A stretch of 64,000 bases of DNA from Rickettsiales bacterium (GTDB taxonomy: Bacteria > Pseudomonadota > Alphaproteobacteria > Rickettsiales > UBA1997), in the NCBI GenBank assembly GCA_031289855.1, contig JAITOR010000075.1, forward strand, positions 7,702-71,701, given 5' to 3'. The translations under genes were made by a program, and so were the position numbers. The number at the start of each line of letters is the position of its first letter. The stretch's first letter is position 1. The notes under the pieces were generated by a model, which was given only the letters and a program-made list of their open reading frames with translations, did not search any database and had not been told where the DNA came from. Below, piece by piece: positions 2,703-43,268 of this stretch.

Positions 2703-3104
2703 ATGAGAATAATTAGAATAATAGAAAAACATTTTTCTTTAATATTGTTTATTCTTCTTGTGGTTTTATGTGTTTTGTTTGTGATAAGAGCCTTTATTCT
2801 TTTAATAATACATTTATTGGCATATTTGCACATTATAAACAGAGCAAAAAGGATAAAGAAGAGAAGAAATACAAGGGATGTGGCCACGATATTGAATGAA
2901 AAACTTGTGGTTAAAAAGGCGGAAGAATCTATTGTTGGATTTGCAAAACCGGTGGGCTTTTGGAGTAGTTTATTGTTGGGTGGCAAAATTACAGAGGTGT
3001 TTGATAAGGCTAAGAATGCGTCATTGAAAGATGATAGCAAAAGTTTTTGGGCCAGCGTTGCAGAGGCACAAGCAAAGGAAAATGCAAAAAATAAGAAAGG
3101 TTAA
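2703..3104 (+). CDS. hypothetical membrane protein (133 aa)
   Basis: The ATG lies 3 nt after the gmk stop. The N-terminal part is hydrophobic (LILFILLVVLCVLFVIRAFILLIIHLLAYL) and is followed by a basic, K-rich soluble tail. Preferred over the antisense ORF 2585..3040, which overlaps the gmk 3' end. Confidence 0.5.
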   Translation: MRIIRIIEKHFSLILFILLVVLCVLFVIRAFILLIIHLLAYLHIINRAKRIKKRRNTRDVATILNEKLVVKKAEESIVGFAKPVGFWSSLLLGGKITEVFDKAKNASLKDDSKSFWASVAEAQAKENAKNKKG

Positions 3105-3209: not shown

Positions 3210-3252
3210 TCAATTAAAAACACAATTAAAATAAAATTTATTTTTTTTTATA

Positions 3253-3284
3253 TACTTCCATACTTTACAGTTATGATATATAAT
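3253..3284 (+). promoter_or_regulatory. cassette copy A: TACTTCCAT-N17-TATAAT
   Basis: The sequence is tacTTCCATactttacagttatgataTATAAT. It is followed 6 nt later by an ATG at 3291. Confidence 0.45.
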
Positions 3285-3290
3285 ATAAAC

Positions 3291-3332
3291 ATGATTATAA
3301 TGTATATGTTGGATATGTGTTGCATATATTAA
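3291..3332 (+). other. candidate leaderless mini-ORF MIIMYMLDMCCIY
   Basis: The ATG lies 6 nt after the -10 of cassette copy A. It shares TATAATATAAACATG and the ATGTGTTG (Met-Cys-Cys) string with the luxS leader. Confidence 0.25.
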
Positions 3333-3421: not shown

Positions 3422-4444
3422 TCATCTGGGGGTGATGGTGGTGGTGGACGAAGATGCTGTTATTCTTGCTGCTAATGTTGCTCTATGGTCGTTTCGTGGT
3501 AAAAGCTTATCGGGTTGAATACCATCGAAAGGTTTAATACTATCAATACCATCACCACCTAAACATAAAGCCTTGATACACACAGATACATCTCTTCCCC
3601 CCTCAATATTTGCAATTACCTGATGAATCCAATCCTTATCACCACTATAATCGTCATTTTTCGCAACTTTTTTTGCATAATTGATAATTTCTTTAACTCC
3701 AATAGCCCCCTTGTTAAATTGGATATACTTTAGACGGAATTCACTAACTATGTCTTTTTTGACACTCATCTCCCCGTCATCTTTGTCGTCATCGTCACCG
3801 TCTCCTTCATCTCTAGCGGTTGTTCCATCTGCGGTTTTAGTAAAATTTCTAAGTCGTTTTAAGGTTTCCAATCTTAATACTGGGTTTACATTTATTTCCT
3901 TTATAGCAGTCATTTCTTGCGCAACTTCTTTGCTAATCTCTTCAAGTTTTTCACTTTTTTCTAAAACATTAGAATCCAATCCATCCAATAATTTTATGAA
4001 AGTATAATCTACTATTTTGTCAAAAACCTCCAGCGCTCTTAAATCAAAAACAATTTTGCCTTCCAACACCTCATCTGCCGCAGGTTGTCCGTCTGATGGC
4101 TCGCCATATTTAGCGAATGCCACTACATTCCTAAAAACTGTTTTTGCTTTTGCTACAAATTCTTTATTAATAGCATCAATCCTACCTTTTTCCTCTATTA
4201 TTTCAGGAGCAGCACCTGCTATTGCACCATCAGATCCCACTTGAACAAAAAGATTAAATTGAAAAGAATCTCTGTATCTTCCACCTCGTAAACCATTGAG
4301 AACTCCAATTTCATTATCAGTTAGTTCTTCACCCTTGGCATTTTTTTCATTAAGAATTTCTAAAAATGCCCTAAAGGGTATAAGTTTAAGTTTTCCATCA
4401 CTTGATGTCAAGTCCCTTGTTGTTTCATCTGCAGGCTCTGTCAT
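3422..4444 (-). CDS. hypothetical acidic protein (340 aa), no recognisable family
   Basis: A long ORF with no signal peptide. It has an acidic block DEGDGDDDDKDDGE and an S/T-rich C-terminus ITASSSTTTITPR. A terminator hairpin follows it. Confidence 0.6.
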   Translation of the reverse strand: MTEPADETTRDLTSSDGKLKLIPFRAFLEILNEKNAKGEELTDNEIGVLNGLRGGRYRDSFQFNLFVQVGSDGAIAGAAPEIIEEKGRIDAINKEFVAKAKTVFRNVVAFAKYGEPSDGQPAADEVLEGKIVFDLRALEVFDKIVDYTFIKLLDGLDSNVLEKSEKLEEISKEVAQEMTAIKEINVNPVLRLETLKRLRNFTKTADGTTARDEGDGDDDDKDDGEMSVKKDIVSEFRLKYIQFNKGAIGVKEIINYAKKVAKNDDYSGDKDWIHQVIANIEGGRDVSVCIKALCLGGDGIDSIKPFDGIQPDKLLPRNDHRATLAARITASSSTTTITPR

Positions 4445-4687: not shown

Positions 4688-5488
4688 CTATTTACTCAAA
4701 TATTCATAAACCTCTTTTTTATTGTTGGCAAATCCCATTTTAACTATAAAATCACTAATATCTTTTACCCTCATAATTCCTTTTAAATTATCGTTTACAA
4801 GATTTATTTTTTCTTTATCAAAACTAACCTCACTCTCATTGTTTTTTAACAAAATAACAAATTCACCCCTAACTTTATCTTTATTTTCATTGTAATATTT
4901 CAAAACTTCACTAACCTTTCCATTTTTTATCTCTTCATACATTTTTGTAATCTCGCGACATACACAAATTTCAATGTTCCCTAAATTTTCAAAAATATCA
5001 TGCAAAGTAAATAAAATTCTTGCGGGACTTTCATATAAAATTATAGTTTCAGTTTTATACCTTAATTTCTGTAAATCTTTTTTGTTTTCTAAAAATCCCC
5101 AAAATAAAAATTTATCTGTTGGCATTCCACTCATAACCAATGAAGTTAAAACCGCGCTTGCCCCACAAATAGCAACAACTTTAATATTGTTTTTATGACA
5201 TTCGGCCACCAATTTATAACCAGGATCGCTGATTAAAGGCGTTCCTGCATCACTGACAAGTCCTACGTTTTTGCCTTCTTTTAATAATTTTATAATTCCA
5301 TTTCGCTCATTTTCATTCGAAAAATCATTGTAAACATGCAAAGATTTTTTTATTTCAAAATGTTGCAATAATTTGTCAGTAACTCTTGTATCTTCACAAA
5401 AAAGATAATCTATACCTTTTAAAATCTCTAATGCCCTTAAAGTAATGTCATTATAATTGCCAATTGGAGTTGAAATAATATGCAACAT
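4688..5488 (-). CDS. rsmI: 16S rRNA (cytidine1402-2'-O)-methyltransferase
   Basis: ORF 4688..5578. Start moved to MLHIISTPIGN (ATG 5488..5486), which overlaps the upstream stop as TAATG. It has the tetrapyrrole-methylase-type motifs TPIGNxxDITLRALEIL and CEDTRVT. Confidence 0.85.
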   Translation of the reverse strand: MLHIISTPIGNYNDITLRALEILKGIDYLFCEDTRVTDKLLQHFEIKKSLHVYNDFSNENERNGIIKLLKEGKNVGLVSDAGTPLISDPGYKLVAECHKNNIKVVAICGASAVLTSLVMSGMPTDKFLFWGFLENKKDLQKLRYKTETIILYESPARILFTLHDIFENLGNIEICVCREITKMYEEIKNGKVSEVLKYYNENKDKVRGEFVILLKNNESEVSFDKEKINLVNDNLKGIMRVKDISDFIVKMGFANNKKEVYEYLSK

Positions 5489-5796
5489 TAAAGTCCTGAA
5501 ATTAGTATTTTTTTTAAAAAAAACAAAATAGATGGAAAAATATTCATCATAAGATACGCAAGAATGGTTACGCAACAAACAAGAATCGGTAACATCATTA
5601 AAAAATTCAAAATAATTCTCAATTTTGCCAATGCTTTAGCGGCCTCTTTATTGTCGGCAGAACCTTGATCCATATTTACTGCCCTCTGTTGATCCGTTAT
5701 ATCGTCTTCAAATTTCTCCTCCACTATCTTTTCACCAAGTTTTTTCTTATTAACTTTATTCGAAAAATCAGCAAGAATATTAGTAGTGTCGTTCAT
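5488..5796 (-). CDS. hypothetical tail-anchored membrane protein (102 aa)
   Basis: The N-terminal half is soluble and acidic; the C-terminal stretch LRIILNFLMMLPILVCCVTILAYLMMNIFPSILFFL is hydrophobic. Its stop overlaps the rsmI start (TAATG). A TTGCTT-N17-TATACA promoter-like sequence lies upstream. Confidence 0.45.
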   Translation of the reverse strand: MNDTTNILADFSNKVNKKKLGEKIVEEKFEDDITDQQRAVNMDQGSADNKEAAKALAKLRIILNFLMMLPILVCCVTILAYLMMNIFPSILFFLKKILISGL

Positions 5797-5868: not shown

Positions 5869-7032
5869 CTATTCACCACATTTTAACATAACAAAAGCAT
5901 CTTCCCTTATCACATCGCCTCCAACTCTTTTCGTGGCATAAAATTTAATGTATGGTTTCGCTGTATACGGATCTCGTAAAATTCTTATATCTTCCCTATC
6001 AACTATTTGATAATATTTGAAATTTCCAAATAATATCGCAGGAATACCAGTATTCAATGCCAACATATATGATGTTTGATACACTGGGGAACCAAGTATT
6101 GTATCGTCCTTACCTCCAAGCAAAGCAGGTTGCCACAAATAATTACCACTCACACTATCCTTCAACATCCTAACTTTTGAAACAGTTTCTCTTGTCATAA
6201 CAAAACTGGCACCACTTACATATTTTTGATTTAACGAATAATATAGGTTTATTACATTTTCTTGATTAAAATCAGTTGCGGAATTTGAGATTATTTCCTC
6301 TATTGGTCTTGTTAAAATACCAGTTGGTTGGTTGACACCATCGCCCCCACCATTCAAAAATGCTTCTTCCTCTCTTTGCAAAAATTGTTCAGCCAATCTA
6401 TCAGCAATGTAATTTTCAATGTTAATAAAGCCATCATCCAATAATTTTTGCGACACCTTTGGTTGAGCCACCAATTCTTGTGCTTTAATTGTTGTTTTTG
6501 ATATGGTGGAACCACTTGTTTCCATTCTATTTTCAATTTCTCCAACCCATGCAGCAGAAAAATTTACATCATCCACAATTTCTAATGCCGAAGAACCTAC
6601 ATTCTGTACAGAACAAATTCTTCTCATAAAGCAAGAATTCTCTAACTCTCCTGCTATAATTTTTGACATATTTGGACTCAATAAATATCCACCATAGGAA
6701 CCAGATATTGCAGTTGTTAAATCAAATTTCCTTTCTAGATTCATAAGTGGAGCATCTACACCTTTTTTGATGTAATTATCTAATGCGGTTTTATATTCCA
6801 CATTTTCTCTTGATTCACATTTGCTCTCAAAACTTGGTCTTGAATTTGATATTTCAAGTTTCTCAATCTTTAACTTTTGCTCTTCAAGAGTATTGTTTAT
6901 TTTTGACAATTCATCAAGCAATAATACATCAGCACCTCCCTTTTTCTCAATTTGTTTTAATCTTTCATCATTTACTTGTTTGTAATGCTCCCATGCATTA
7001 CCGATTTTCTCTAACTTGTCGTTAATTTCCAT
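5869..7032 (-). CDS. HK97-family phage/GTA major capsid protein (387 aa)
   Basis: An N-terminal coiled-coil delta/scaffold-like segment (MEINDKLEKIGNAWEHYKQVNDERLKQIEKKG...) is followed by a region of about 280 aa with the Phage_capsid (HK97) look. GGAG lies 5 nt upstream of the ATG. No neighbouring phage genes. Confidence 0.75.
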   Translation of the reverse strand: MEINDKLEKIGNAWEHYKQVNDERLKQIEKKGGADVLLLDELSKINNTLEEQKLKIEKLEISNSRPSFESKCESRENVEYKTALDNYIKKGVDAPLMNLERKFDLTTAISGSYGGYLLSPNMSKIIAGELENSCFMRRICSVQNVGSSALEIVDDVNFSAAWVGEIENRMETSGSTISKTTIKAQELVAQPKVSQKLLDDGFINIENYIADRLAEQFLQREEEAFLNGGGDGVNQPTGILTRPIEEIISNSATDFNQENVINLYYSLNQKYVSGASFVMTRETVSKVRMLKDSVSGNYLWQPALLGGKDDTILGSPVYQTSYMLALNTGIPAILFGNFKYYQIVDREDIRILRDPYTAKPYIKFYATKRVGGDVIREDAFVMLKCGE

Positions 7033-7066
7033 AAAGTCTCCATAAAATTAAAATTGTTACAAAAAT

Positions 7067-7098
7067 ATTATTACACATTATCACAAATGAGGGAAGTA
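7067..7098 (-). promoter_or_regulatory. cassette copy B (divergent, 3 nt shorter), upstream of the capsid gene
   Basis: The minus strand reads atacTTCCCTcatttgtgataatgtgTAATAAT. It lies about 35-65 nt upstream of the capsid ATG at 7032. Confidence 0.35.
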
Positions 7099-7123
7099 TA
7101 AAAAATAAATATTTTTTTACTAC

Positions 7124-7152
7124 TTGCAAAGTGACAAATTATTTTATATAAT
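7124..7152 (+). promoter_or_regulatory. sigma70-type promoter of ftsI (TTGCAA-N17-TATAAT)
   Basis: The spacer is exactly 17 nt. The ATG at 7159 lies only 6 nt after the -10, which is leaderless geometry. Confidence 0.55.
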
Positions 7153-7158
7153 ATAAAT

Positions 7159-8781
7159 ATGAAAAGATATTCAATTAACAAAACTGATTATACATATTCA
7201 AGAAATAGGTTATTTTTTCTTGTTTTATGCGTTATTTTTTTGCTCTTTGTGTATGTGGGGAGAATTTTTTATTTATCGTGTTTTTATAAAAAAAATAATA
7301 TGGAACAAGAATATATTTTTACAAATACAAATATTATATCAAGGGATGCAATTAGAGTTGATATAGTTGATAAAAATGATGTTATTTTGGCAACTAATAT
7401 TAAATTGTATGATTTTTATTTAAATAAAGATTTAATAACAAACAATGAATCTACAATTGATATTATAGTTAAAATTTTTCCATTTTTAAATAAAGAAACT
7501 TTGTTAAAAAAAATTACAAACCATAAATCAAAGTTAATTTTGATTAAAAATGGCATAACAGAAAGTCAAAAAAATGAAATCAAAAAAACTATTTTTGGCT
7601 TTGAATTTATGGAAAGTTTAGTAAGAATATACCCACATCAAGAATTGTTTTCCCATATAATAGGTTTTACAAATAGCGATAAACATGGAATTGAAGGCCT
7701 TGAATTACAATATAACGATTATCTTGACAATAAGGATAATCCACCATTAAAACTCACTTTTGATAGTAGGATACAAGCAATTTTAAGGAAGCAATTATTG
7801 AAAGGTATGGAAAAATATAAGGCAAAGTCAATAATTGGCATTGTGGCAGAAGTAAAAACTGGAAATGTTTTGGCATTAGTGAACTTGCCAGACTTTAATC
7901 CAAATCAATTAAATGATGTAAAAAGGGATGTTATGTATAATAAAGTGACCTTTGGAGCATTTGAAATGGGCTCTATATTTAAAATATTTACAATTGCTAT
8001 GGCACTTGATGGAAACATAATTACGGAAAATGAGCAATTTGATTCTTCAAGTAAAATTGATATTGGAAAATATATAATAAAACAGGATTATTATAGCAAA
8101 AAAATGATAAATGCAAAAGAAATTTTACAAAAATCTTCAAACATTGGTGCCGCTCTTATTGGTTTAAAAGGTGGTGCAGATAATATGAAGCAATTTTATA
8201 AAAAAATAGGATTTTTTGATAAATTGCCAGTAAAATATCCATCATTGGCAATGCCACTTTATCCAAGGACTTGGCGGAAATCAAACACTATTACAACATC
8301 ATATGGATATGGAATGGCAGTTAGTCCGTTGCATATAATTATGGGTGTAAGTGGAATTGTGAATGAAGGAATTATGAATATTCCAAAGTTTGTGACGAGT
8401 GAAAAATATGAAAAAGTTGAAATCATTAGTCAAAAAACTTCAAAAATAATGCAAAACTATTTAAGAGATGTAGTGCAAAATGGAACTGGATTTAGAGCAA
8501 ATACACTCGGTTATTCTGTTGGTGGAAAAACTGGTTCTGCAAGGCTGTTAGGTAGAGGTGGGGAATATTTGGAAGGACAAATTATGGCAAATTTTGTGGG
8601 AATTTTTCCCATGAATAATCCGCATTATGTGGTGTATGTGATGGTTGAAAATCCGCAAGATAATAATTACAAAAAAAACATTGATATTGCAGCAAGTAAT
8701 GTAACTGCTCCCATTGTGTCGAAAATTATTGAAAACATAGCACCAATCCTGAATGTTGTCCCATATATTGAGGGATTGTAA
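7159..8781 (+). CDS. ftsI: peptidoglycan D,D-transpeptidase (class B PBP, FtsI/PBP2-like)
   Basis: It has an N-terminal TM anchor and the transpeptidase motifs SIFK (SxxK), SSN (SxN) and KTGS (KTG). Confidence 0.85.
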   Translation: MKRYSINKTDYTYSRNRLFFLVLCVIFLLFVYVGRIFYLSCFYKKNNMEQEYIFTNTNIISRDAIRVDIVDKNDVILATNIKLYDFYLNKDLITNNESTIDIIVKIFPFLNKETLLKKITNHKSKLILIKNGITESQKNEIKKTIFGFEFMESLVRIYPHQELFSHIIGFTNSDKHGIEGLELQYNDYLDNKDNPPLKLTFDSRIQAILRKQLLKGMEKYKAKSIIGIVAEVKTGNVLALVNLPDFNPNQLNDVKRDVMYNKVTFGAFEMGSIFKIFTIAMALDGNIITENEQFDSSSKIDIGKYIIKQDYYSKKMINAKEILQKSSNIGAALIGLKGGADNMKQFYKKIGFFDKLPVKYPSLAMPLYPRTWRKSNTITTSYGYGMAVSPLHIIMGVSGIVNEGIMNIPKFVTSEKYEKVEIISQKTSKIMQNYLRDVVQNGTGFRANTLGYSVGGKTGSARLLGRGGEYLEGQIMANFVGIFPMNNPHYVVYVMVENPQDNNYKKNIDIAASNVTAPIVSKIIENIAPILNVVPYIEGL

Positions 8782-8943: not shown

Positions 8944-9018
8944 TCCACAATAGCTCAGTGGTAGAGCAGTAGACTGTTAATCTATTGGTCGCAGGTCCGA
9001 TCCCTGCTTGTGGAGCCA
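8944..9018 (+). tRNA. tRNA-Asn (GTT)
   Basis: I folded the cloverleaf by hand. The acceptor tccacaa pairs with ttgtgga, the anticodon loop is ctGTTaa, the T arm is gcagg/cctgc, and the 3' CCA is encoded. Confidence 0.9.
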
Positions 9019-9769: not shown

Positions 9770-10030
9770 AAATAGAGTGATTCTTTAAAATGGTTCACTC
9801 AAGACCATTCTTGCAATAACAAAATCTCTATTGAGATTAACCCGAAGGTTATGCAGCTAAAGCAAGGTCTGAATTATCTTCAGCATTTATGTTTTGAACT
9901 ATTACGGTTGTATCTTGCCGGACAAAATCATATTTTTCGATGTATGTCTAAGCTAATCATCCCCTTAAAAATGGTGGAGATGCCGAGTTCCGCCCTCGGG
10001 TCCATATCATTTATTATATATAACGTTTAT
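9770..10030 (-). ncRNA. ssrA: two-piece (circularly permuted) tmRNA; outer boundaries approximate
   Basis: On the minus strand the acceptor piece ends ...GGACCCGAGGGCGGAACTCGGCATCTCCACCA, with its 3' end at 9972. Seven nt later the coding piece starts GGGGATGATTAGCTTAGAC at 9964. GGGGATG pairs with CATCTCC and includes the G3:U70 alanine identity pair. The tag frame ends GCT GAA GAT AAT TCA GAC CTT GCT TTA GCT GCA TAA (9884..9849), giving ...AEDNSDLALAA. Confidence 0.8.
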
Positions 10031-10288
10031 CATCATAGTCATAAAGACGTACTTATTATAATATATATTACACAATAAGTCAAATTAATTCACCATAATT
10101 AAAAATAATTTTTTGATTTATTAAAATATAATAATATAAAATATTAATATTATTAATAATATGGTTATTTTGTAATTATGTTTTACCAGAAAAAAGGTTT
10201 TAGGATGAGATATGTTTTTATTGTAGTTATTGGCCTGTTACTGCTCTTTTATGTGATTGACAAAATATATTCAAATATAGGAGATTAT

Positions 10289-15484: not shown

Positions 15485-15949
15485 ATGGTAAAACATATAG
15501 TAAAAAGTTTTAATTTAGACCACACAAAGGTCAAAGCACCTTTTATAAGATTGGCGGATGTAATAAAAACACCAAGTGGTAAAGATATAATCACAAAATT
15601 GGATTTGCGATTTACACAACCAAATAAGGAATTTTTGGATATGCCGTCAGCACATACTTTGGAACATTTGTTGGCAACATATTTAAGAGAAGGTAAAAAA
15701 TACAATATCATAGATTTATCTCCCATGGGTTGTCAAACTGGATTTTATATATCTTTATTTGATGAAATAAATTTAACAGAATTTAAGGAATATTTTATTT
15801 GGGGATTAAAAAAAGTATTAGAAACAATTGAAATACCGGGAGCCACTGAAATAGAATGCGGAAATTATAAAAGTCATTCATTGGAAGGGGCAAAAAAATT
15901 TGCAAAAAAAGTATTAGATAGCGAAATTGGAATAATGGAAACCTATTAA
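15485..15949 (+). CDS. luxS: S-ribosylhomocysteine lyase
   Basis: It begins SFNLDHTKVKAPFIRL, carries the metal-binding HTLEHL motif and has the expected size. AAGGAG lies 5 nt upstream of the ATG. Confidence 0.85.
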   Translation: MVKHIVKSFNLDHTKVKAPFIRLADVIKTPSGKDIITKLDLRFTQPNKEFLDMPSAHTLEHLLATYLREGKKYNIIDLSPMGCQTGFYISLFDEINLTEFKEYFIWGLKKVLETIEIPGATEIECGNYKSHSLEGAKKFAKKVLDSEIGIMETY

Positions 15950-19599: not shown

Positions 19600-22500
19600 A
19601 TGTTTTTTAAAAAGTTTTTTTGTTCGTTATTATTGATTACCTTACTTGTCAGTTGCGAAGGTGCTAATTGCATTGATGCAAATGATTTTGGGGAGTTTGA
19701 CGTACATACAATGGCAATAGAATCACAAAAAACTTTATGTAAATGGGAAGAAACTGATACATCCGATGGAAACGGGGATTATGAAATTGAAAGATGTTTA
19801 AGAGATGCGAGTGGCGCAAGGAGTATTAGAAATCCAGATATAGATTGTACTATAACATTTAACGAGGGAACTTCTGGTTATGCAAAAGTAAAAGAAGCCT
19901 TAAAATCACAAAATATCACAAAAGGTTTTATGGAAAAATATTTTACTTTGAATAATGAAAGTCAGTGTGGAACGGATTATAAAAAATTATTGACCGCCTT
20001 TTATGCGGAAGGACTTGAGGACTGCATATCCACATGTGAAACAAAACATAAAGCATCAAATCCAGTGTCGGAAGATGTTTATGAACCTGAATGGAAGCCG
20101 GCAGATTTAATTTTAGAAGTTGGTAGAGAATTTTATATTAAAGCAACGGGTGAAATAGATTTGTTGGGAGAAAAGGAGCGAAGCGTTCAGTATCTTGCTG
20201 GTTCCATAAATATGAATAAAAAAACTACTATAAATACTATTTTTGCCATAAAAACTAATACTGATATGACGTTTTCTGGTAATTGGATTACAACAAAAAA
20301 CGGAGTTGTTGACAAAAATTATGGTGAGATTGATGGTAATCAACCAAATTTACAAAAAAGAATTGAATTTTTGAGAAGAGGTGTTATGTATTTACAACCA
20401 CTTCCCAGCGTTAAAATACAAGGTATGACCATAATTGGCGAAGTAAATGAGATAGGTTCTTATACCGGGCCAGATGTGGAATTAGATAAAACAAAAATTT
20501 CTTGTTTAGTGAATGAAAACTTACCTTATGATGGGTATCCTACCACTTGTAAAGTTGATTATGGAGTTGAAGAGTTACCTGATGATTTTTCTATAGCAGC
20601 ACTTACGGAATCTCAAAGAATAGCATTGGCAAATAATGAATTGTATAAGTTGGATCCTTTTATGTCAAAATCAAAGGCTGGATATGTATTGACGCCTGAC
20701 ATTATAGATTATATGACTAAAATGCCACTAAAAGGTTATAGTTGCGCAACAACATTTAATGCAAATTACGGAATTTATCGTAGAAATTGTGATGATGGAA
20801 AAATAGATAGAAGTATTGGATTTAATAATGGTTATTTAGTACCAAAAGCCTTTGTTTTTACAAATGAAACTCAGGGTGGAAATGATGATTATCAAATGGA
20901 TATAAATGGGTTGGTTTTTCCTGTAAAAATCATGGTAAGAGTTTATGGCGGAATAAGGGGAGAATGTAAAGTTGGTATAAAAATGCCAGCAGCATTAGGG
21001 GTAAACGATCTTGATCCTTCCAACGAAGTTGATGGATTTTACAAAGTTACTATTCCCGCTAATGATAAATGGCACTATATAAATGATATAAAAAACAAAC
21101 CAATAATATTTGGAAAAAATACATTTTTTACCATAAAAGAAACAACTGAAGGTAGAGTAAATGTAAGAAATGAAAATCAATATAATTTAGCTTTAAAAGT
21201 TGTGTCTCCAAGTTTTGATGAAGGTAATAGACCTCAGTGGACGGCTGCTCCTGGTGCTTCATTATATCCAAATACTTTTGTTGTGCCACCTATACCTTCA
21301 AAAGGCACGCCAAATGAAATTATTGACACAGAAAATCATCCAGCTCCTTGTGGCGAGGGTATGGTTGTTATGTTGATGCCACAAAATGAAATAGTGATAA
21401 AAGAAAGTGGATTTGTTTCAATCAAATCGTTTCTAAAAGACAAAATATATACTTGTAATGCCGCTGATGATGGAAGTGAAGTATTTTGTCAGGATGGTGC
21501 CAATGGTGGAGGTAATCCACCAATAAATAGAACATTTAATTTGAAATATACTATATTAAATCCAAATGTAAATGCATCCGCAACAACTTTTGCTGTTAAA
21601 TCTGAAAATTTTTATGAAAAATCAACCTCAGAAATTGTCGGCAGTTCAAATAAATATTATCCAAAGTTTAATGATTTAATGATACCAGTTTCAGCAATAG
21701 GTTCCGTGAGCACTACCACATGGAGTAGCAAATTTTTTGTTAGAAAAGGACAGGTCATTAGATTTGATGAAACCAGTTGGTTTGGCATTGAAGGATCCAA
21801 TGGAGATGGTTTTGAAGTAAAAGAAAAATTTTTAAAGTATGATAATTTTAATATCAAAAAAAACATAGGAGAAGGTTTAATAATGCATATTGAGAAAAGA
21901 CCATCTTTTTTATGCACAGGCGAAGCCGAAGAATCAATATTCAATTCATCTTGCCAAAAGATTAAAAAAGATGATGGAACTGTTGATTGCAGGGTTCCTT
22001 ATTCTCAATATTGTTCCACAATGAATTCACAGGCAGAAGTAGATAGATATTGTCCGCTCGGTTGTTATAAAGTGGAGGTTGGTGGCGGTGGAGAAGCAGA
22101 GCATAAAGTGGAAATAAATGAAGGATGGGGAATTGCTTTATTGAAAGGCGATAGTACAATCAAAAATCAATCATTTTATGTGGATAATAATGAGAAGGAA
22201 TCTAACAATTGCTCTTATCCTCCTGAGTCATTACCTGAAAGTTTTGAAGATCCAATGAGTGTACAAAAATGTATAGAATGTAGAAATTATATAGAAAGTA
22301 ATCCGGACGCTTCAATTGAATTGGTGAATAAGGTATCTTTAACTCAATGTTATGATTTAGAAAATTATACAGGAAGCATCAAGGTTTTAGAAAATAAAAA
22401 TCCCTTTATAAATAGTGAAACAGGAGAGGGTGATTATAATAAAAAGACATTTGATTTATTGGGTGTAAAAAAATTAAATAGTATATTTTCGCAAGATGCA

Positions 22501-25500
22501 AAATATGGAAACCTTGAAGGCTCATCCGTTGACTCTCAATATCAACAAAGCGATGGAACTTATACAAAGTTTATTTATAATTCACCAACTGAATTAAAAA
22601 CAGAAGAACCAAAAATAATTAAATTTTTAACTCTAAACATTGATGATAATTTGGATTTTTCTCCTTCATTTGCAGAGGATATTGGAAGATACAAAATTAC
22701 ACTTATGGAAGGTGATAAATTTATGAATGGAAAACAACTTTCTGTACTTATAGCTCACAAAGGTTGGGATAAAAAAAATTTTAGTCAACAATGTGAAACT
22801 GGTTTTTGTGTTAAACAATATGTTGTAAAATATGACACAAGTAAAGAAAGTGAAGGAGGTTTGGAACCTAATACAAATTATGGTAAAGAATTAAGCGATG
22901 TAAATGATTATGAATTTGATTCATTTGGAGATCTTGTAAGTAAAGCCAAAATAAGTGAAAAAAAACTCATTTTAACATCTATAAAAAATGGACTAACATC
23001 TTTTGATTTAGTTGAACCAAAAGAATATGAAGATTTAAGAATATATTTTAAAGTTATTGATAGATTGCAATACGCTCCAAAGGAAACATTTAATGATGAT
23101 TGTCCTTTAAATACCATAGCAGAATATGAAACACGTTATAGTTGTACAGGCGCAACATATGATGAATTAAAAACCATTACATGTGTTTCGACAATTAATA
23201 ATGTAAGTGAAACAATCAGTGCTTGCCCCATTAGTGCCACCGATACAGCCTGTTCAAAGACGAGTGCGGGTTCATATATTACACCACCATATAGCATTAA
23301 AGTAAAAGTTGGTTGTAATCATGGCTTATATTATAATAATAATGGTGGTTATTCAGTGAAAATACAATCTCCAAAAGTTTTCACAAGTTTAAATTCCGTA
23401 ACCGATATGGATAGCGCTATAAAAACCAATGTTTTGTCATGGGGGGTTACAAAAATTCAAGGTTTCACAATTAGAAGATTGCTAAATCCTTTTATGGAAG
23501 TTATGGAAGGAATAAATATGGGATTACTGAATTTTAGGGGAGGATTTGAACCTTGTGTGAAAGAAATTGGAGAAACTGTGTCTTCAAAATGCACCTATTA
23601 CAATCCAAAAACAGATATTTTCGATCCACAATTTGGTGCAGGTTGCACATACGATCAACCAAATTGCTTTATAACATGCAACCTAATAAATGAAAGCGAT
23701 CCAGGATATGCTGGTAAATGTAAAATTGTGAATGATAATGGTGGTTATATTAAAAACTTTTATTCAAGAGTTATATTGGATTCGCAATTTCATGCAGTAG
23801 TAAGAATTTTATTAACTTTAATGATGACATTTTTGGGTTTATATCATTTGATAGGTATGTCAGAAATAACAAGTAAAGAGATGCTTACAAGAATTACAAA
23901 GATTGGAATAATTTATTTATTTATAGGGGAAACTGGATGGTTTTATTACAATAGATTTATCGTTCAATTTTTTGTAAGAGGTGCCGATTATTTGTCTTAT
24001 GCAGTGGCAGGTGCATTTGAGGAGACTCCAGGACTTACAAGAGAATTCACAAAGGGAATCTTTCTTGATAAAACGGTATTATTTGGTGCCACCGATAGAA
24101 ATTTAGCATTAATATTTTCAGCTGAAGTAAATTACAAAATATTAGGTCTATTGTTTACAAGTTATCTCGGCTGGTTATATGTAATATTATTATATTCGGC
24201 TCTCATAAACTATGTTTTTGCCTCACTTAATGCTTTGGTTTTGTTTATGATGTCAAAATTTTTGCTGATGGTAATGTTGACATTTGGTCCAATATTCTTT
24301 GTGCTATTGATTTTTGAAAAAACAAAGACTGCATTTGACAAATGGGTAATGGCACTTGTGGGACATGTGGTGGAGCAAGTATCTTTAATGGTTGGATTAT
24401 CATTATTTAATATGTTGGTTTATAATTTTATAAAATTTGTATTGAATTTTAGAGTATGTTGGACCCAAGTGTGGATTGTTGAACTTCCATTATTAGGTAG
24501 TATAAAACTATTTAATTTTTGGAGAGCAACCACTGGTACCACAACCGTTACAACGGCAATGAATGCAATGCCAGGATTATTTAGAGTATTGATTATATAT
24601 ATCATTGCAGATTTAATGAAAGGATTTATAGAATTGGTGAGAAATTTTTCCAACGATATTGCAAAATCTGGTTTAAAATTAGGAGATAGGGTTGGTGGAA
24701 TTTTAGAAGAAGTTAACAGATATAAAGAGGGGGATGATGGTATAAAAGATTCTTTCACAAAAGGATTAAATGCCAAAAGAGATTCATTCTTTAAGAAGAT
24801 GGGATACCAGACAGAAGAAGAGGAAATGAAAGAACAAAGTGATGAAAAGAAAAATAATATAAAAATAAGACAGGGTGAAAATGCTGGAAAAGAGGCAAGA
24901 AATGATCTTGCCGCAAAGGCACATATAGAATCAACAAAAAAGGCAAAAGAATCTGCTGAAAAATTTGTAAATAATAAAGGAGATGCTGCTAAAAATAAAC
25001 ATCTTGAAGAAAAAGGTCAAGAGGCAAGAGAAGTGGCTGAAAATGCATTTAAATCTAAAAAAAATAACAAAAAATTGTCTCCAGAGGAACTTGAAAAAGG
25101 AGCAAGAGAAGAGGGAGATAAGGCCGAAAAAGAAGCAAAAGAAAATGCAGACAATATTAAGGAAGCAGAAAGTAAGGCAACAGAAGCAAAAGAGAAAGCA
25201 CAAAAAGATGTGACAGGTATAAAAGCAGCCGAAAAAGAAGCATATAAATCTTCATATAACGAAATGGCGAGCACAGAAAAACTTGATGAAGCTTACAAAA
25301 ATGCATTTACAGCAAAAGCCGGGGCGGATAATTGGGGCAAAGAGGCAAGCACAAAAGCTGATAGTGTATTTGGTTTCATTGCATCAAAGGCATGGCATGC
25401 CGCAAGAGATGGCAAAGCAAGCACAAAAGCTGATAGTAGCACAATAGATAAACAAAATGAGATGACAAAAGTTGTTAAAAAAGCAAAGGATAAGGACGAT

Positions 25501-26343
25501 AAAAAGGAATTTGATAAAAAACATGATGAAAAATTAAAAGAGGAAGGTCATGGATTTTTAGCAAGAAGATGGGCCATGAGAAAAAATGCTCTTACGGGTG
25601 GTAGAAAACATAGTGGAGTTGGTATAACGCCATTAGGAAAAACCACAAGTAATTATAGAGATGCAGCGCTTAAGGAACAAAATGAAAAGAAAAATAAAGA
25701 TAAAGAAATGCTTGAATACAGAAATGAAATAGCACAAGAATCAAGACAAAAGAAAATTGAATCTGACAGAGAACTTGAGAACCACAAAAAAACAGGGGAA
25801 TATAAAGAAGATTTAAGGGATGAAACAAATAAATTACAAAAAGAATGGATGAAGGAAAATAGTTTTACTTCGTATGATAAATTTATAAAAAATGGAACTG
25901 TTGAACAGAAAAAAGCATATGGAAAACTTGGAGAAAAGGCAAAAAAGAATGTTGAAAGTAAATATCTAAAAAAGAGAGCAGAGGCGAAAGCTGCTGAAGA
26001 AAAAGATGCATCTGCAACAGCATCAGAAGAGGCAACACCAAAAAAAACGGAAACAGAAGAGGCAACACTAAAATCAGAGGAGGAGGCAACATCAAAAAAA
26101 ACGGAAACAGAAGAGGCAACACCACCTGAAGCAGAAACAGGTGCTGAAGCCAATGATGCAACACAACCAGAGATACCGGAAGTTCCATCGGAAGTACTTC
26201 CTCAGCCTTTAGAGGGGGAGGCTATACCACCACCTAAAACGGAAATATCAGCAAAAAGAAGAAAAAAGGCATCACATCGCGGAAGAGCAACAATTCCGGA
26301 TGGTTCACCTGAACCAATGGATGAACCGGAGGAAACTGAATGA
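19600..26343 (+). CDS. giant (2,247 aa) lipoprotein with a VirB6/TrbL-like polytopic membrane core
   Basis: The lipobox is LLVSC, with Cys at aa 19. A Cys-rich soluble region of about 1,375 aa follows. A cluster of hydrophobic helices spans about aa 1396-1672 and contains TFGPIFFVLLIFEKTKTAFDKWVMALVGHVV. That segment parallels the VirB6 segment AIGPLILVGYIFDRTRDIAAKWIGQLITYGL of A. tumefaciens as I recall it. A K/E/A-rich low-complexity tail of about 575 aa carries short tandem repeats. Confidence 0.6.
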   Translation: MFFKKFFCSLLLITLLVSCEGANCIDANDFGEFDVHTMAIESQKTLCKWEETDTSDGNGDYEIERCLRDASGARSIRNPDIDCTITFNEGTSGYAKVKEALKSQNITKGFMEKYFTLNNESQCGTDYKKLLTAFYAEGLEDCISTCETKHKASNPVSEDVYEPEWKPADLILEVGREFYIKATGEIDLLGEKERSVQYLAGSINMNKKTTINTIFAIKTNTDMTFSGNWITTKNGVVDKNYGEIDGNQPNLQKRIEFLRRGVMYLQPLPSVKIQGMTIIGEVNEIGSYTGPDVELDKTKISCLVNENLPYDGYPTTCKVDYGVEELPDDFSIAALTESQRIALANNELYKLDPFMSKSKAGYVLTPDIIDYMTKMPLKGYSCATTFNANYGIYRRNCDDGKIDRSIGFNNGYLVPKAFVFTNETQGGNDDYQMDINGLVFPVKIMVRVYGGIRGECKVGIKMPAALGVNDLDPSNEVDGFYKVTIPANDKWHYINDIKNKPIIFGKNTFFTIKETTEGRVNVRNENQYNLALKVVSPSFDEGNRPQWTAAPGASLYPNTFVVPPIPSKGTPNEIIDTENHPAPCGEGMVVMLMPQNEIVIKESGFVSIKSFLKDKIYTCNAADDGSEVFCQDGANGGGNPPINRTFNLKYTILNPNVNASATTFAVKSENFYEKSTSEIVGSSNKYYPKFNDLMIPVSAIGSVSTTTWSSKFFVRKGQVIRFDETSWFGIEGSNGDGFEVKEKFLKYDNFNIKKNIGEGLIMHIEKRPSFLCTGEAEESIFNSSCQKIKKDDGTVDCRVPYSQYCSTMNSQAEVDRYCPLGCYKVEVGGGGEAEHKVEINEGWGIALLKGDSTIKNQSFYVDNNEKESNNCSYPPESLPESFEDPMSVQKCIECRNYIESNPDASIELVNKVSLTQCYDLENYTGSIKVLENKNPFINSETGEGDYNKKTFDLLGVKKLNSIFSQDAKYGNLEGSSVDSQYQQSDGTYTKFIYNSPTELKTEEPKIIKFLTLNIDDNLDFSPSFAEDIGRYKITLMEGDKFMNGKQLSVLIAHKGWDKKNFSQQCETGFCVKQYVVKYDTSKESEGGLEPNTNYGKELSDVNDYEFDSFGDLVSKAKISEKKLILTSIKNGLTSFDLVEPKEYEDLRIYFKVIDRLQYAPKETFNDDCPLNTIAEYETRYSCTGATYDELKTITCVSTINNVSETISACPISATDTACSKTSAGSYITPPYSIKVKVGCNHGLYYNNNGGYSVKIQSPKVFTSLNSVTDMDSAIKTNVLSWGVTKIQGFTIRRLLNPFMEVMEGINMGLLNFRGGFEPCVKEIGETVSSKCTYYNPKTDIFDPQFGAGCTYDQPNCFITCNLINESDPGYAGKCKIVNDNGGYIKNFYSRVILDSQFHAVVRILLTLMMTFLGLYHLIGMSEITSKEMLTRITKIGIIYLFIGETGWFYYNRFIVQFFVRGADYLSYAVAGAFEETPGLTREFTKGIFLDKTVLFGATDRNLALIFSAEVNYKILGLLFTSYLGWLYVILLYSALINYVFASLNALVLFMMSKFLLMVMLTFGPIFFVLLIFEKTKTAFDKWVMALVGHVVEQVSLMVGLSLFNMLVYNFIKFVLNFRVCWTQVWIVELPLLGSIKLFNFWRATTGTTTVTTAMNAMPGLFRVLIIYIIADLMKGFIELVRNFSNDIAKSGLKLGDRVGGILEEVNRYKEGDDGIKDSFTKGLNAKRDSFFKKMGYQTEEEEMKEQSDEKKNNIKIRQGENAGKEARNDLAAKAHIESTKKAKESAEKFVNNKGDAAKNKHLEEKGQEAREVAENAFKSKKNNKKLSPEELEKGAREEGDKAEKEAKENADNIKEAESKATEAKEKAQKDVTGIKAAEKEAYKSSYNEMASTEKLDEAYKNAFTAKAGADNWGKEASTKADSVFGFIASKAWHAARDGKASTKADSSTIDKQNEMTKVVKKAKDKDDKKEFDKKHDEKLKEEGHGFLARRWAMRKNALTGGRKHSGVGITPLGKTTSNYRDAALKEQNEKKNKDKEMLEYRNEIAQESRQKKIESDRELENHKKTGEYKEDLRDETNKLQKEWMKENSFTSYDKFIKNGTVEQKKAYGKLGEKAKKNVESKYLKKRAEAKAAEEKDASATASEEATPKKTETEEATLKSEEEATSKKTETEEATPPEAETGAEANDATQPEIPEVPSEVLPQPLEGEAIPPPKTEISAKRRKKASHRGRATIPDGSPEPMDEPEETE
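26026..26121 (+). repeat. intragenic imperfect tandem repeats (EEAT modules) in the tail of the giant gene
   Basis: GAAGAGGCAACA or GAGGAGGCAACA occurs at 26026, 26056, 26080 and 26110. AAAAAAAACGGAAACAGAAGAGGCAACA occurs twice. Confidence 0.8.
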
Positions 26344-29809: not shown

Positions 29810-30940
29810 TTGTTTGTAGATGAAAAAAATAAACAAAATATATATTACTCAATAAATAAAAATGCAGATATTATTTATGAGTTGCGAGATGTGGGAGACT
29901 CGTGTCTGAAACAAAACTTTGTATCTGTAACTGAATTTAAAAAACCAAATGGAGTGAATCTGCATGAATATTGCAGTTTTGGTTATTACTGGCATCCAGA
30001 CCCTACGAAGCCCAATGGACTTCCATACATAAAAAAAGATGGTATAATAAATGTAGAGGCTAATAAAGGTTGTAAAGTGGCATTAAAAAATATGGCAGAA
30101 AGTGTTTTTCATCTTGCGGTGGCTGGACATTATTTGCAAAACAAGATTTATACAGATTATGCGATAAATCTTTTATATACTTGGTTTGTTGACAAGGATA
30201 CATATATGAATCCAAATTTAAAGTTCGCACAAATAATTCCAGGTATTGATATGATTAGAGGCATTGGAATTATAGATGGACTACCATTTATAACAATTTG
30301 TCATGCTCTTGAATATATTAATAATCCAATAATTGATGATATGAAAAAATGGTTTAGTGAGTATTTGCATTGGTTGAATAGTAGTGAATATGGAAGAATG
30401 TTGACTAAAAATAACAAAAATAATCATATATCCTATTACAATGCACAACTCATGTGTTATGCGATTTTCACAGACAATGAAAAAATCATCCAAGAGTGTG
30501 TTGAAAGATATAAAATAATTTTACAAACCCAAACAAATGATGAGTGTGCTTTTACTGCGGAATTAACGAGAACTAGAAGTTTACATTATTGTTTGTTTAT
30601 GTTGGAAAGTCTTGTTATTACCTGCGAATTAGCATTTCAAAGAGGCATAGATTTATGGAAATACACAACTAATTGTGGGAAGAATATAGAAAAATGTATA
30701 GATTTTATGTTTCCATACATTAAAAAGCCTTTTAGATGGCCATTTCCACAAATAATTGATGAATATATTGCGCCGCAATCTGGATTGCAACTTGGGGCAA
30801 TTAGGTTGGGAAGAGATGATTATAGAATATTGGATGAAAAAATGAGAGATGAAATGAAAACAATTTATCCTTTTCTTCATATCGATGAATTAAAGGTGCC
30901 TTGTATGGGTGAATTGTGTTTTTTGGAAGGATATTTCTAA
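29810..30940 (+). CDS. alginate lyase family protein (PF05426-like polysaccharide lyase)
   Basis: It has NNKNNHISYYNAQL (the NNHxYW-type motif) and AELTRTRSLHYCLFMLESLVITCELAFQRGIDLW, which resembles the AlgL-type core. It uses a TTG start and I saw no obvious signal peptide. Confidence 0.55.
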   Translation: MFVDEKNKQNIYYSINKNADIIYELRDVGDSCLKQNFVSVTEFKKPNGVNLHEYCSFGYYWHPDPTKPNGLPYIKKDGIINVEANKGCKVALKNMAESVFHLAVAGHYLQNKIYTDYAINLLYTWFVDKDTYMNPNLKFAQIIPGIDMIRGIGIIDGLPFITICHALEYINNPIIDDMKKWFSEYLHWLNSSEYGRMLTKNNKNNHISYYNAQLMCYAIFTDNEKIIQECVERYKIILQTQTNDECAFTAELTRTRSLHYCLFMLESLVITCELAFQRGIDLWKYTTNCGKNIEKCIDFMFPYIKKPFRWPFPQIIDEYIAPQSGLQLGAIRLGRDDYRILDEKMRDEMKTIYPFLHIDELKVPCMGELCFLEGYF

Positions 30941-37944: not shown

Positions 37945-38919
37945 TTACAATATTAATAGTTTTCTTGATATACTTTTTATTCTTTTATCTTCACTTTTTC
38001 TTAATAAAAAATATCCCGTCAATCTTTCGGCAATCATACCAATATCTCTAAATTTTCTACTATCTTTTGGTAATTTTTCCTCTAATTTAAATAATATAGG
38101 AAATATCCAATTGGAATATTCAAAAAATAATTCTCTCTTCATTATAAATATATTATTAAAATAAATTTTGTCACCCTCAAAAAATTTTTTCACATCTTGA
38201 TATTGTGATGGGTATTTATCTTTAATAAAAGTCATGGTTTCATTAAAAATATCTATACTAACCGCTTTGTTATATGGCATCATGTATTGAAAGTAAACGC
38301 TTAAAACGTTTCTTAACTGTGTTGTTACTAAATCCATACCCTCCATAACATCTTCTATTGCTCTGTATTCCAGCAGTTTTCCATAATGATAAACTCCAAT
38401 ATATTCCGGATTTCCAATTTTATCATAGTTTTTCCATGCCCAATAAATACCAGTCATCTCATTCCAATATCTATTGTAGCGAGAAACATTGTCACCAGTA
38501 TCATCACCTATCATGTTATCATTCAACCATTTATGGGGGTGGAGCAGAGTTTTTTTATAGTGCTCTTTGAAATCAGTTGCTATTTCTTCACCTACCTTGG
38601 CAATACTTCTACCACAATGTATTGGAAGTATTACTTTGTTTTGCCAAAGTGTATAAGGTTTGTGATAACAGGCAATAATTTTGATGTTATATCTTGTTTT
38701 ATCATCTGGATTATCATATCTGTATTTTTTTATTTCAATTGGTTTTTTTAAATTAATTTGCTCCTCAAGTTGAGCCAATATTGTTCTATCAAATGTACAA
38801 TGTGAATAAAATTTTTTTAAATTAACTGCCAATTGTTCTATCAAATATACATATGAATGAAATGAAATTAAAATAAATGATATGACGATAATATTTGAAT
38901 AATATTTATTTTTTAACAT
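37945..38919 (-). CDS. DUF4422-domain putative glycosyltransferase, paralog 1
   Basis: An N-terminal TM anchor is followed by IKIIACYHKP...LPIHCGR...GDDTGDNVS...YWAWKNY...IGVYHYGK and FIMKRELFFEYSNWIFPILF. This is the DUF4422 pattern (DNTGDNIS...YWxWKN...HYRR). It is clearly homologous to 50606..51604. Confidence 0.65.
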   Translation of the reverse strand: MLKNKYYSNIIVISFILISFHSYVYLIEQLAVNLKKFYSHCTFDRTILAQLEEQINLKKPIEIKKYRYDNPDDKTRYNIKIIACYHKPYTLWQNKVILPIHCGRSIAKVGEEIATDFKEHYKKTLLHPHKWLNDNMIGDDTGDNVSRYNRYWNEMTGIYWAWKNYDKIGNPEYIGVYHYGKLLEYRAIEDVMEGMDLVTTQLRNVLSVYFQYMMPYNKAVSIDIFNETMTFIKDKYPSQYQDVKKFFEGDKIYFNNIFIMKRELFFEYSNWIFPILFKLEEKLPKDSRKFRDIGMIAERLTGYFLLRKSEDKRIKSISRKLLIL

Positions 38920-42248: not shown

Positions 42249-43268
42249 TTGTTTATGAGGTGTATGTTTCTGAAAAATTTGACAAAAAAAAAACAGCATC
42301 ATAATAAAGTGTTAATAAATAAAAATACAATGGTCAATGAAGACAAAAACTTTTCTTCAAATGAAGGAATTGAAAAATTTGAAACAAATATTCTTGATGA
42401 AGTAAAACAATATTTGGAAAAAGGTGAAATGCAAGAAAGCGAAAAATATTTTTTAAATGGAATTATTAGAAAATATAAACCTAAAAAATTATTGGAAGTT
42501 GGAGTTTCGGCTGGTGGTTCGAGTATAATTATGTTAAATGCAATAAAAGAGTATGATGCAAGATTATATTCGGTGGATTATAGTAAAAAATACTATCGAG
42601 ACAATACCAAAGAAACTGGCTACTTGGTTCAAGAAAATGTTCCACATTTAGCAAATAAATATAAATTATATACCGGTAATATAGCGGCAAATTTTATGGA
42701 AGAAATTGGAGGTGATATAGATTTGTGTTTGTTGGATACTGTGCACTCGATACCGGGAGAATTGCTTGATATTTTAATGATTTTGCCCTTCATGAAAAAA
42801 GATGGAATAATTGTTTTACACGACACATCTTATCATTGTTTCAAAAACACTGCTTATTCAAATGGGATATTGTTTAGTGTCATAAAGGCCAATAAATTAC
42901 AACCATTGATGAATGAAGATTCTATTCCATTGCCAAATATTGGAGCATTTCAATTAATGAATGACACCATGCAATATGCAAGTGATATATTTCTTTCGTT
43001 AAATTTGCCATGGCAATATTTGCCATCCGATGCTTGTATACAAGAGGCCATCAAGTTGTATTTAAAATATTACAAGGAAAAGGATATAAAAATTTTAGAA
43101 AAAATATTTCTTTACAATAAGAAGATATGTGAGAATAAAATAAAGTACAAAGGAATTAATGTTGCTTGTAAAAAATATAAAAAATATCCAAAATGGCTTA
43201 TATATTTTTTGTGTTGGTTCGTGGTGAAGAAAATAAATAGAAACAAAATGAGGAAAAAATATATATAA
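42249..43268 (+). CDS. class I SAM-dependent methyltransferase with a C-terminal TM segment
   Basis: Motif I is LLEVGVSAGGSSIIML, the post-I segment is acidic, and LCLLDTVHS...DGIIVLHD follows. The C-terminal hydrophobic stretch is WLIYFLCWFVV. The start is uncertain (TTG at 42249, or ATG at 42255 or 42264). Confidence 0.6.
   Translation: MFMRCMFLKNLTKKKQHHNKVLINKNTMVNEDKNFSSNEGIEKFETNILDEVKQYLEKGEMQESEKYFLNGIIRKYKPKKLLEVGVSAGGSSIIMLNAIKEYDARLYSVDYSKKYYRDNTKETGYLVQENVPHLANKYKLYTGNIAANFMEEIGGDIDLCLLDTVHSIPGELLDILMILPFMKKDGIIVLHDTSYHCFKNTAYSNGILFSVIKANKLQPLMNEDSIPLPNIGAFQLMNDTMQYASDIFLSLNLPWQYLPSDACIQEAIKLYLKYYKEKDIKILEKIFLYNKKICENKIKYKGINVACKKYKKYPKWLIYFLCWFVVKKINRNKMRKKYI

Follow-up and report, generated by a model that had tools for sequence, protein, structure and literature searches.

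Capsid genes of gene transfer agents and related systems

Homologues of the genes of RcGTA, a gene transfer agent (GTA) with an HK97-like capsid, are found in Rickettsiales in small clusters only, mostly as singletons (Shakya et al. 2017, PMC5721377). Capsid and portal genes are reported to be widely retained in both Rickettsiales and Holosporaceae, Rickettsiaceae having several scattered clusters; dN/dS of the head domains ranges from 0.04 to 0.60, no particles were seen by transmission electron microscopy, and horizontal gene transfer is weighed against repurposing, for host interaction or for encapsulin-like storage (George et al. 2022, PMC9254644). The element described as a GTA in Wolbachia derives from a WO phage (PMC10299305), and has no bearing on the gene considered here. 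That tiny symbiont genomes keep phage-head genes is a genuine puzzle, as is the role of "head-only" GTAs. Described here is a major capsid protein gene from an uncultured Rickettsiales bacterium, located in a stretch of 64,000 nucleotides of contig JAITOR010000075.1, indicated below as the window: an AT-rich (26–34% GC), gene-dense sequence. The gene is intact, expressed-looking and selectively maintained; it is a long-standing chromosomal resident of RcGTA-related ancestry, and it is alone in the 64 kb. It is probably the g5 equivalent of a fixed, vertically inherited RcGTA-like phage remnant, the genes of which are scattered in a reduced, AT-rich Rickettsiales genome.

The locus is a further example of the published pattern of scattered GTA head genes. 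A preliminary description, made from the sequence alone, had proposed either scattered GTA genes or a domesticated role; the phenomenon and both readings are already in print (PMC9254644). Its observations are largely borne out, and its interpretation in part: the gene is indeed intact, more similar to the RcGTA capsid than to HK97 gp5, without companions in the window and subject to purifying selection. What is new here is an environmental Rickettsiales clade, well populated and extremely fragmented, along with a series of intermediates: when sister lineages are included, a stepwise series is obtained, from intact cluster to isolated genes. The locus alone, belonging to an uncultured metagenome-assembled genome (MAG), does not make the puzzle testable.

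Compared with the published Rickettsiales and Holosporaceae head genes (PMC9254644, PMC5721377), the window gene shares the type of host (reduced, AT-rich, symbiont-type), the arrangement in small clusters or singletons and purifying selection, while its lineage, known from uncultured MAGs, is absent from both George et al. 2022 and Shakya et al. 2017. Fragmentation in its clade looks extreme with respect to the published genes, g5 being without head partners in every context read.

Among solved structures, the capsid protein of RcGTA, g5 (Rcc01687; PDB 6TB9, 6TBA, 6TSU), is the best match both in sequence (about 36–37% identity) and in fold. The two proteins are similar in length and are both composed of an N-terminal domain of about 100 residues and an HK97-fold shell, with GGY following the predicted maturation site. 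The RcGTA gene, however, lies in a contiguous g1–g15 cluster, right after portal and protease, while the window gene is alone; its clade, moreover, falls outside the canonical large-cluster clade in a neighbour-joining (NJ) tree, and no CtrA box is found near it. HK97 gp5, whose crosslink residues are K169, N356 and E363, has the same fold and the same delta-plus-shell logic, and TIGR01554 is named after HK97; it is, however, distant in sequence, and belongs to an infectious phage genome. Capsid-forming phage-inducible chromosomal islands (cf-PICIs) are integrase-bearing islands with packaging and connector genes: the head protein of one of them, EcCI2 (PDB 9GYI), ranks second among solved capsids by sequence and also matches closely in fold, but no integrase or packaging island surrounds the window gene. 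Encapsulins, finally, are also stand-alone HK97-fold shell genes in cellular genomes; unlike the window gene, which has a delta domain and no cargo neighbour, they lack a delta domain, belong to another Pfam family and have adjacent cargo genes.

The capsid gene and its product

The gene, its parts and the adjoining signals are the following:

5869..7032, minus strand: major capsid protein gene, 387 aa plus stop, RcGTA g5-like with HK97 fold (PF05065, TIGR01554, PHROG 10, fold model)
6727..7032, minus strand: delta (scaffolding) domain, codons 1–102 (AlphaFold2 helices, alignment with 3qpr, domain-wise conservation and dN/dS)
5872..6726, minus strand: mature shell domain (N-arm, E-loop, P- and A-domains), codons 103–387 (PF05065 at residues 114–385, Foldseek)
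7038..7041, minus strand: Shine-Dalgarno-like GGAG, 5 nt 5' of the ATG at 7032, read from the sequence
7033..7158, no strand: AT-rich intergenic region of 126 bp, shared by the divergent capsid and penicillin-binding protein (PBP)/ftsI genes

The gene is a single unbroken open reading frame (ORF) of 387 codons and a stop, starting with ATG. An alternative start is excluded by an in-frame TAA at 7048–7050, five codons 5' of the ATG; the ribosome binding site ascribed to the gene in the preliminary description is indeed present, as the GGAG listed above. The encoded protein is identical to NCBI MDR3290451.1, recorded as "MAG: phage major capsid protein [Rickettsiales bacterium]" and encoded by a contig of 73,745 bp.

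The product is a major capsid protein of HK97 fold, complete in length and provided with an N-terminal delta domain of its own. The whole PF05065 (Phage_capsid) profile is matched by residues 114–385 (E=2e-70; 237.8 bits against a cut-off of 24.2), and TIGR01554 (major_cap_HK97) is matched end to end, residues 2–385 being aligned on its 385 model positions (E=1.3e-88; 297.7 bits, cut-off 27.5); the uninterrupted frame and these whole-profile matches bear out the earlier claim of a full-length capsid ORF. PHROG 10, major head protein, is also matched. In the Pfam scan of the protein Phage_capsid is the only match, and no encapsulin family is hit. When all PDB sequences were searched by phmmer, RcGTA Rcc01687 (6TB9/6TBA) came first (E=1.4e-55), followed by the head protein of the cf-PICI EcCI2 (E=9e-25); HK97 gp5 scored only about E=1e-5.

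An AlphaFold2 model, built from 41 homologues (mean pLDDT 73), predicts long helices in the N-terminal 100 residues or so (2–30, 36–63, 75–90 and 94–100), followed by a mixed alpha/beta shell domain. Residues 18–321 align by phmmer with HK97 Prohead I, including its scaffolding domain delta (PDB 3qpr): the coiled-coil, scaffold-like segment noticed at first is therefore recognized as an HK97-type delta domain. When the model was compared with the PDB by Foldseek, the RcGTA capsid chains 6tb9 and 6tsu ranked first (E=5e-25 to 2e-22; target-normalised TM-score 0.67–0.75); the probability was 1.00 for the capsids of RcGTA, Mycofy1, EcCI2 and HK97.

At the end of the delta domain, E100 and K102 are invariant in 41 out of 41 clade members. 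E100-x-K102 is a putative site of maturation by a prohead protease: it lies 11 residues before GGY, the RcGTA E-G-K being found 9 residues before GGY. The longest modelled RcGTA chains contain about 297 of 386 residues, which is consistent with the loss of about 90–100 N-terminal residues; the mature RcGTA capsid presumably starts with "ALNSAV...".

Upstream of the gene, a weak sigma-70-like site is present on the capsid strand (7137–7108, TTGTCA-18-AATATT, 9/12); the number of promoter-like sites does not exceed chance level (17 found, 12 +/- 3 expected). No CtrA box (TTAA-N7-TTAA) is found within 5 kb of the capsid gene, and the whole window contains 8 of them, against 16.7 expected. No convincing terminator is present 3' of the gene: an intrinsic terminator considered at this position was rejected, its folding (z=0.64) being no better than that of shuffled sequences.

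Selection and residence in the host genome

The capsid gene has a GC content of 33%, and of 24% at third codon positions; in codon usage it lies as near to the pooled host genes as do any of the housekeeping genes tested. The dN/dS ratio (omega), which the preliminary description had suggested as a check, was calculated by the NG86 method: dS is saturated in nearly all pairs, and omega is to be read as a rough upper bound. When the window gene is compared with its closest relative, dN is 0.227 and dS, saturated, is 1.37, which sets omega at about 0.17 or less; the least saturated pair within the clade gives dN=0.043, dS=0.95 and omega=0.045. In the comparison between the window and one of the related loci, L006, dN is 0.275 for the capsid gene and 0.174 for yebC. 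Overall, omega of the capsid gene is at most about 0.05–0.2, indicating purifying selection and no decay.

Delta and shell domains are conserved to the same extent: their mean identities to the window protein are 57.9% and 57.5%, respectively, with omega between 0.05 and 0.17. Across 41 clade sequences 72 columns are invariant, 14 of which fall in the delta domain. Purifying selection acts on the gene over its whole length. Host-like codon usage, monophyly of the clade (see below) and omega values not above 0.05–0.2 agree in indicating vertical inheritance accompanied by purifying selection. As a domain used in assembly only and a candidate cleavage motif are both conserved, the existence of a working assembly-and-maturation pathway may be argued.

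Genomic neighbourhood and search for other GTA genes

The genes closest to the capsid gene are the following:

7159–8781, plus strand: class B PBP/FtsI-type transpeptidase, upstream of the capsid gene and divergent from it
5488–5796, minus strand: orphan ORF of 102 aa, hydrophobic at its C-terminus, lying between rsmI and the capsid gene
4688–5488, minus strand: rsmI, downstream of the capsid gene
3422–4444, minus strand: orphan ORF for an acidic protein of 340 aa with a Ser/Thr-rich C-terminus, located further downstream, as is gmk
8944–9018, plus strand: tRNA-Asn
9771–10087, minus strand: two-piece (permuted) tmRNA of alphaproteobacterial type, 147 bits

The neighbours originally indicated, ftsI and rsmI, are both present; rsmI, however, is separated from the capsid gene by the 102-aa ORF, whose stop overlaps the rsmI start (TAATG). 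The 340-aa ORF has no Pfam, NCBIfam or PHROG match, no homologue in the related loci and no database record under this start. Housekeeping genes flank the locus (gmk, rsmI, ftsI, a HAD hydrolase, pepF, a bamB-like gene, prfA), and the recognisable genes of the whole window are all housekeeping or cell envelope ones, such as translation genes, rpoA, secY, murB, prfA and the permuted tmRNA.

Other phage-type genes were searched by several methods. The Pfam scan took in every window ORF of at least 110 aa; PHROGs were used for nine ORFs, most of those lacking a Pfam match (60527–61381 and 61646–62932 were left out); hidden Markov models (HMMs) of g2–g15, built from 80 RcGTA-like loci of IMG/VR, were searched on the six-frame translation of the window; phmmer was run with portal, protease, g6 and g7 of AT-rich lineages. 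The GTA HMMs matched g5 alone (E=5e-111), every other profile scoring E>1, and the phmmer queries found no match in the window. Pfam, PHROGs, GTA HMMs and phmmer thus bear out the preliminary description: in none of these searches did the 64 kb yield a gene for a portal, a protease, a terminase or a tail protein. The possibility that GTA genes are hidden among the window ORFs without a Pfam match was rejected on the basis of PHROGs (for the nine ORFs), GTA HMMs and phmmer. Large clusters feature the genes in g1–g15 order; here no homologue of g2–g4 or of g6–g15 is found in the window, and the gene is consequently assigned to the "small cluster/singleton" class of Shakya et al. 2017.

No integrase, no tRNA gene and no att-like repeats adjoin the capsid gene, the flanking direct repeats being no more than AT-rich matches. 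The sole tyrosine recombinase of the window is XerC/D-like, and lies 24 kb away from the capsid gene. Genes for tmRNA and tRNAs are typical phage integration sites: those listed above are found 2–3 kb from the capsid gene, with no accompanying integrase or att repeat.

According to the preliminary description, a divergent copy of the cassette was present upstream. This was not confirmed: tblastn of the capsid protein against the whole window finds the capsid gene itself only, the next best hit having E=1.7. A second capsid copy or "cassette" was accordingly rejected, the 340-aa ORF being unrelated to the capsid and the nearby repeats being AT-rich. These consist of a 62-nt promoter-like similarity (3233–3294 and 7101–7162, 71% identity) and of a 32-nt AT-rich motif at 3084, 4485 and 5819. 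The former may have been the source of the claim; it may also be a chance likeness in AT-rich DNA.

The 62-nt similarity pairs the ftsI promoter and start region with an intergenic stretch devoid of ORFs. The ftsI promoter region contains TTGCAA-17-TATAAT and stops 6 nt short of the annotated ATG: the mRNA may be leaderless, or the start mis-called.

Relatives of the capsid gene and their genomic contexts

Relatives were collected as the best 120 clusters, out of a total of at least 120, from a collection of 5.8 billion proteins. Their identity to the window capsid ranges from 50 to 68%, and they are 386–433 aa long, except for one entry of 341 aa. Organism names, where given among these best 120 clusters, are Rickettsiales; three matches in GTDB are Rickettsiales MAGs, on short contigs.

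The capsid gene could be read in eight other distinct contexts, on contigs of 24–31% GC, each time among unrelated housekeeping genes: an N6-methyltransferase gene and rmuC, dnaE and yebC, dsbD-type genes and an ABC ATPase, plsY and sspB near virB3/B4/B6, and others. Neither portal nor protease adjoins it in L002, L003, L005, L006, L011 and L013 or on the short contigs L008–L010, where the housekeeping neighbours vary. In none of the eight is a portal, protease or terminase gene found within 10 kb of the capsid gene, and about 200 kb of clade DNA examined contain no head partner. In contrast, portal and/or protease adjoin the capsid gene in 71 of the 80 metagenome loci listed, which are mostly canonical GTA clusters but include L103, and in most of the 80 IMG/VR loci. 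Some tail genes are nevertheless found in the lineage. In L005, alone among the clade contexts in having both, g8 (tail terminator, PHROG 176) and g12 (DUF2460, E=1.5e-55) follow g5 in RcGTA order, 1.5–2 kb downstream; a solitary g8 is found in L003, 7 kb away from the capsid gene; L100, a contig of the same kind, features a g12 singleton between ATP synthase genes and ychF.

AI-2E-family transporters are encoded near the capsid gene in L002 and L011. Type II CRISPR-Cas loci, composed of Cas9 (about 1,181 aa), Cas1 and Cas2, are found at L100:15723–20564 and L101:17018–20594, the distance to the g12 singleton being 5–10 kb; both contigs have 24% GC and resemble the AT-rich Rickettsiales-type ones. 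Such systems are not known to be usual in Rickettsiales.

Origin of the gene

A capsid phylogeny, also suggested in the preliminary description, was obtained by NJ from Kimura distances on about 380 columns, with 100 bootstraps; this is a simple tree, weak at its deep nodes. The Rickettsiales-type capsids, at least 120 sequence clusters from AT-rich contigs, form a monophyletic clade (100/100), whose sister group (87/100) is composed of three AT-rich (31–37% GC) lineages, located through a protease search. The gene orders in these lineages are the following:

L184: g3-(OMP, EVE)-g4-g5-x-g6-g7-g8-x-x-miaB-x-ahpC-x-g12-g13
L183: g5-g3-g6-g7-x-EVE-g4
L103: g4...g5...g6-g7

Contiguous clusters in RcGTA order, loosened clusters of the sister lineages and isolated genes of the window clade form a graded series. 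Descent from an RcGTA-order cluster is supported by synteny in relatives, with L184 keeping the genes in order and L005 the series g5...g8...g12 inside the clade itself; on the whole, for the origin of the gene, the argument from gene order is stronger than that from the tree. Since the sister AT-rich lineages keep loosened g3-g4-g5-g6-g7...g12-g13 clusters, of head genes or of head genes and part of the tail genes, with housekeeping genes interrupting that of L184, the window locus looks like the end point of the fragmentation of a GTA cluster. Of the two readings proposed originally, that of scattered GTA genes gains indirect support from the relatives, being favoured by the g8 and g12 genes found away from clusters in the capsid lineage and by the loosened sister clusters.

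In the GenBank phage collection, the two best matches to the window capsid (35.5% identity) belong to RcGTA-order clusters filed as "Bacteriophage sp.", while capsids of genuine phages (SfII, Pseudomonas D14E and others) are 32–34% identical to it. Since capsid similarity alone cannot separate GTAs from phages, the "GTA" label is based on the gene order of the sister lineages and on the literature.

Both "Bacteriophage sp." records, MW091529.1 (L094) and MW462191.1 (L095), are GTA clusters. The latter is a "phage" contig of 103 kb; as a PBP gene and a LysE transporter gene adjoin its GTA cluster, it is regarded as bacterial chromosome. A further observation concerns a gene for an EVE-domain (PUA-like) protein, divergent and upstream of g4 in the three sister lineages (L103:2109–2504, L183:9573–9974 and L184:9548–9967, all on the minus strand): it is directly upstream of g4 in L183 and L184, while one small gene is interposed in L103. 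The GTA gene orders of the three otherwise differ, and no EVE gene was seen in the window. The EVE gene could be linked to the head module by function, as a conserved partner, or its position could simply reflect inherited synteny.

Possible roles of the capsid gene

The scattered, vertically inherited GTA remnant proposed above implies a fragmented head module, and the other members of this module, at least protease and portal, are probably encoded elsewhere in the genome. By means of its delta domain, the capsid subunit would assemble by itself and form a small procapsid; a prohead protease of g4 type, provided by another locus, would trim the subunit near E100-x-K102; the trimmed capsid would then act with portal, and possibly terminase, encoded at other loci.

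A number of observations weigh against this proposal. Neither portal, protease, terminase nor adaptor is found in the 64-kb window or, in other clade members, within 10 kb of the capsid gene; since no partner is located in the window or near the clade capsids, cooperation with dispersed partners is, for this genome, what we infer. Homologues of g12 and g4 are present in the protein collection, but none of them has an MDR329... accession, which would have tied it to this MAG. The NJ tree places the window clade outside the canonical large-cluster GTA clade, and the similarity of the window capsid to phage capsids (32–35%) about equals that to canonical GTA capsids (34–38%). The E-x-K motif is shifted by two residues from the E-G-K of RcGTA in the ungapped alignment. 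The saturation of dS, mentioned above, also limits the weight of the omega values.

The absence of an adjacent portal or protease in any clade context read, and of head partners in the clade DNA examined, is also what would be expected if the capsid alone had been domesticated. Portal, terminase and tail would have been lost and a self-scaffolding shell kept, either encapsulin-like or secreted and interacting with the host, with no DNA packaging through a portal. Strong purifying selection, marking the gene as functional, would fit as well, and a storage compartment and host interaction are both named as open possibilities in PMC9254644. This, the main rival explanation, is nonetheless unlikely: the delta domain and the invariant E-x-K are as conserved as the shell, as fits protease-dependent maturation; relatives in the clade keep the tail-terminator g8 and the distal-tail g12, for which a closed shell would have no use; in Pfam the protein matches Phage_capsid and not an encapsulin family; none of the neighbours (ftsI, rsmI, the orphan 102-aa ORF) is cargo-like; g4 proteases are found in other Rickettsiales MAGs. 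Slightly less likely still is the more specific version, in which a GTA cut down to a self-scaffolding shell, without portal and terminase, underwent an independent and recent conversion to an encapsulin-like compartment or a host-directed particle. If the shell were indeed portal-less, the invariant delta domain would act as a scaffold inside the shell or tether cargo to it, and would not be just an assembly aid to be discarded.

Far less probable than either is a decaying prophage or GTA remnant, that is an incipient pseudogene, still uninterrupted. Isolation from all other phage-type genes, in a genome under reduction, would be in line with it, but the ORF is complete and matches the profile at every position, homologues are intact at 50–68% identity in at least 120 clusters, and omega is well below 1, dN being within about 1.6-fold of that of yebC; host-like codon usage and the 72 invariant columns in 41 sequences add to this, and the pseudogene reading is close to refuted. 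Just as improbable is an active mobile element, either a prophage or a cf-PICI-like satellite, with its other genes lying just beyond the window or being unrecognisable. The EcCI2 head protein does represent the second-best PDB family, about 9.7 kb of the 73.7-kb contig lie beyond the window, and tmRNA and tRNA-Asn are close by. The gene has, however, housekeeping genes on both flanks, no integrase, repressor or replication gene nearby, no att-like repeats and a fully host-like composition; its neighbours, moreover, are different in each relative, contrary to what a conserved mobile island would show.

Other features of the window

A giant ORF of 2,247 aa (19600–26343, plus strand) contains a single TrbL/VirB6 domain, at residues 1405–1609, and is similar to the enlarged VirB6-like proteins of the type IV secretion systems of Rickettsiales. 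LuxS (S-ribosylhomocysteinase, E=5e-47) is encoded at 15485–15949 and an alginate lyase family protein (E=6e-65) at 29810–30940, both on the plus strand, in a Rickettsiales MAG of 29% GC; a reduced genome of strictly intracellular life would not be expected to encode either. Two DUF4422 glycosyltransferase-like genes, a methyltransferase gene and an MBOAT acyltransferase gene, found at 37945–38919, 42249–43268, 48963–50432 and 50606–51604, suggest a region devoted to the modification of surface polysaccharides.

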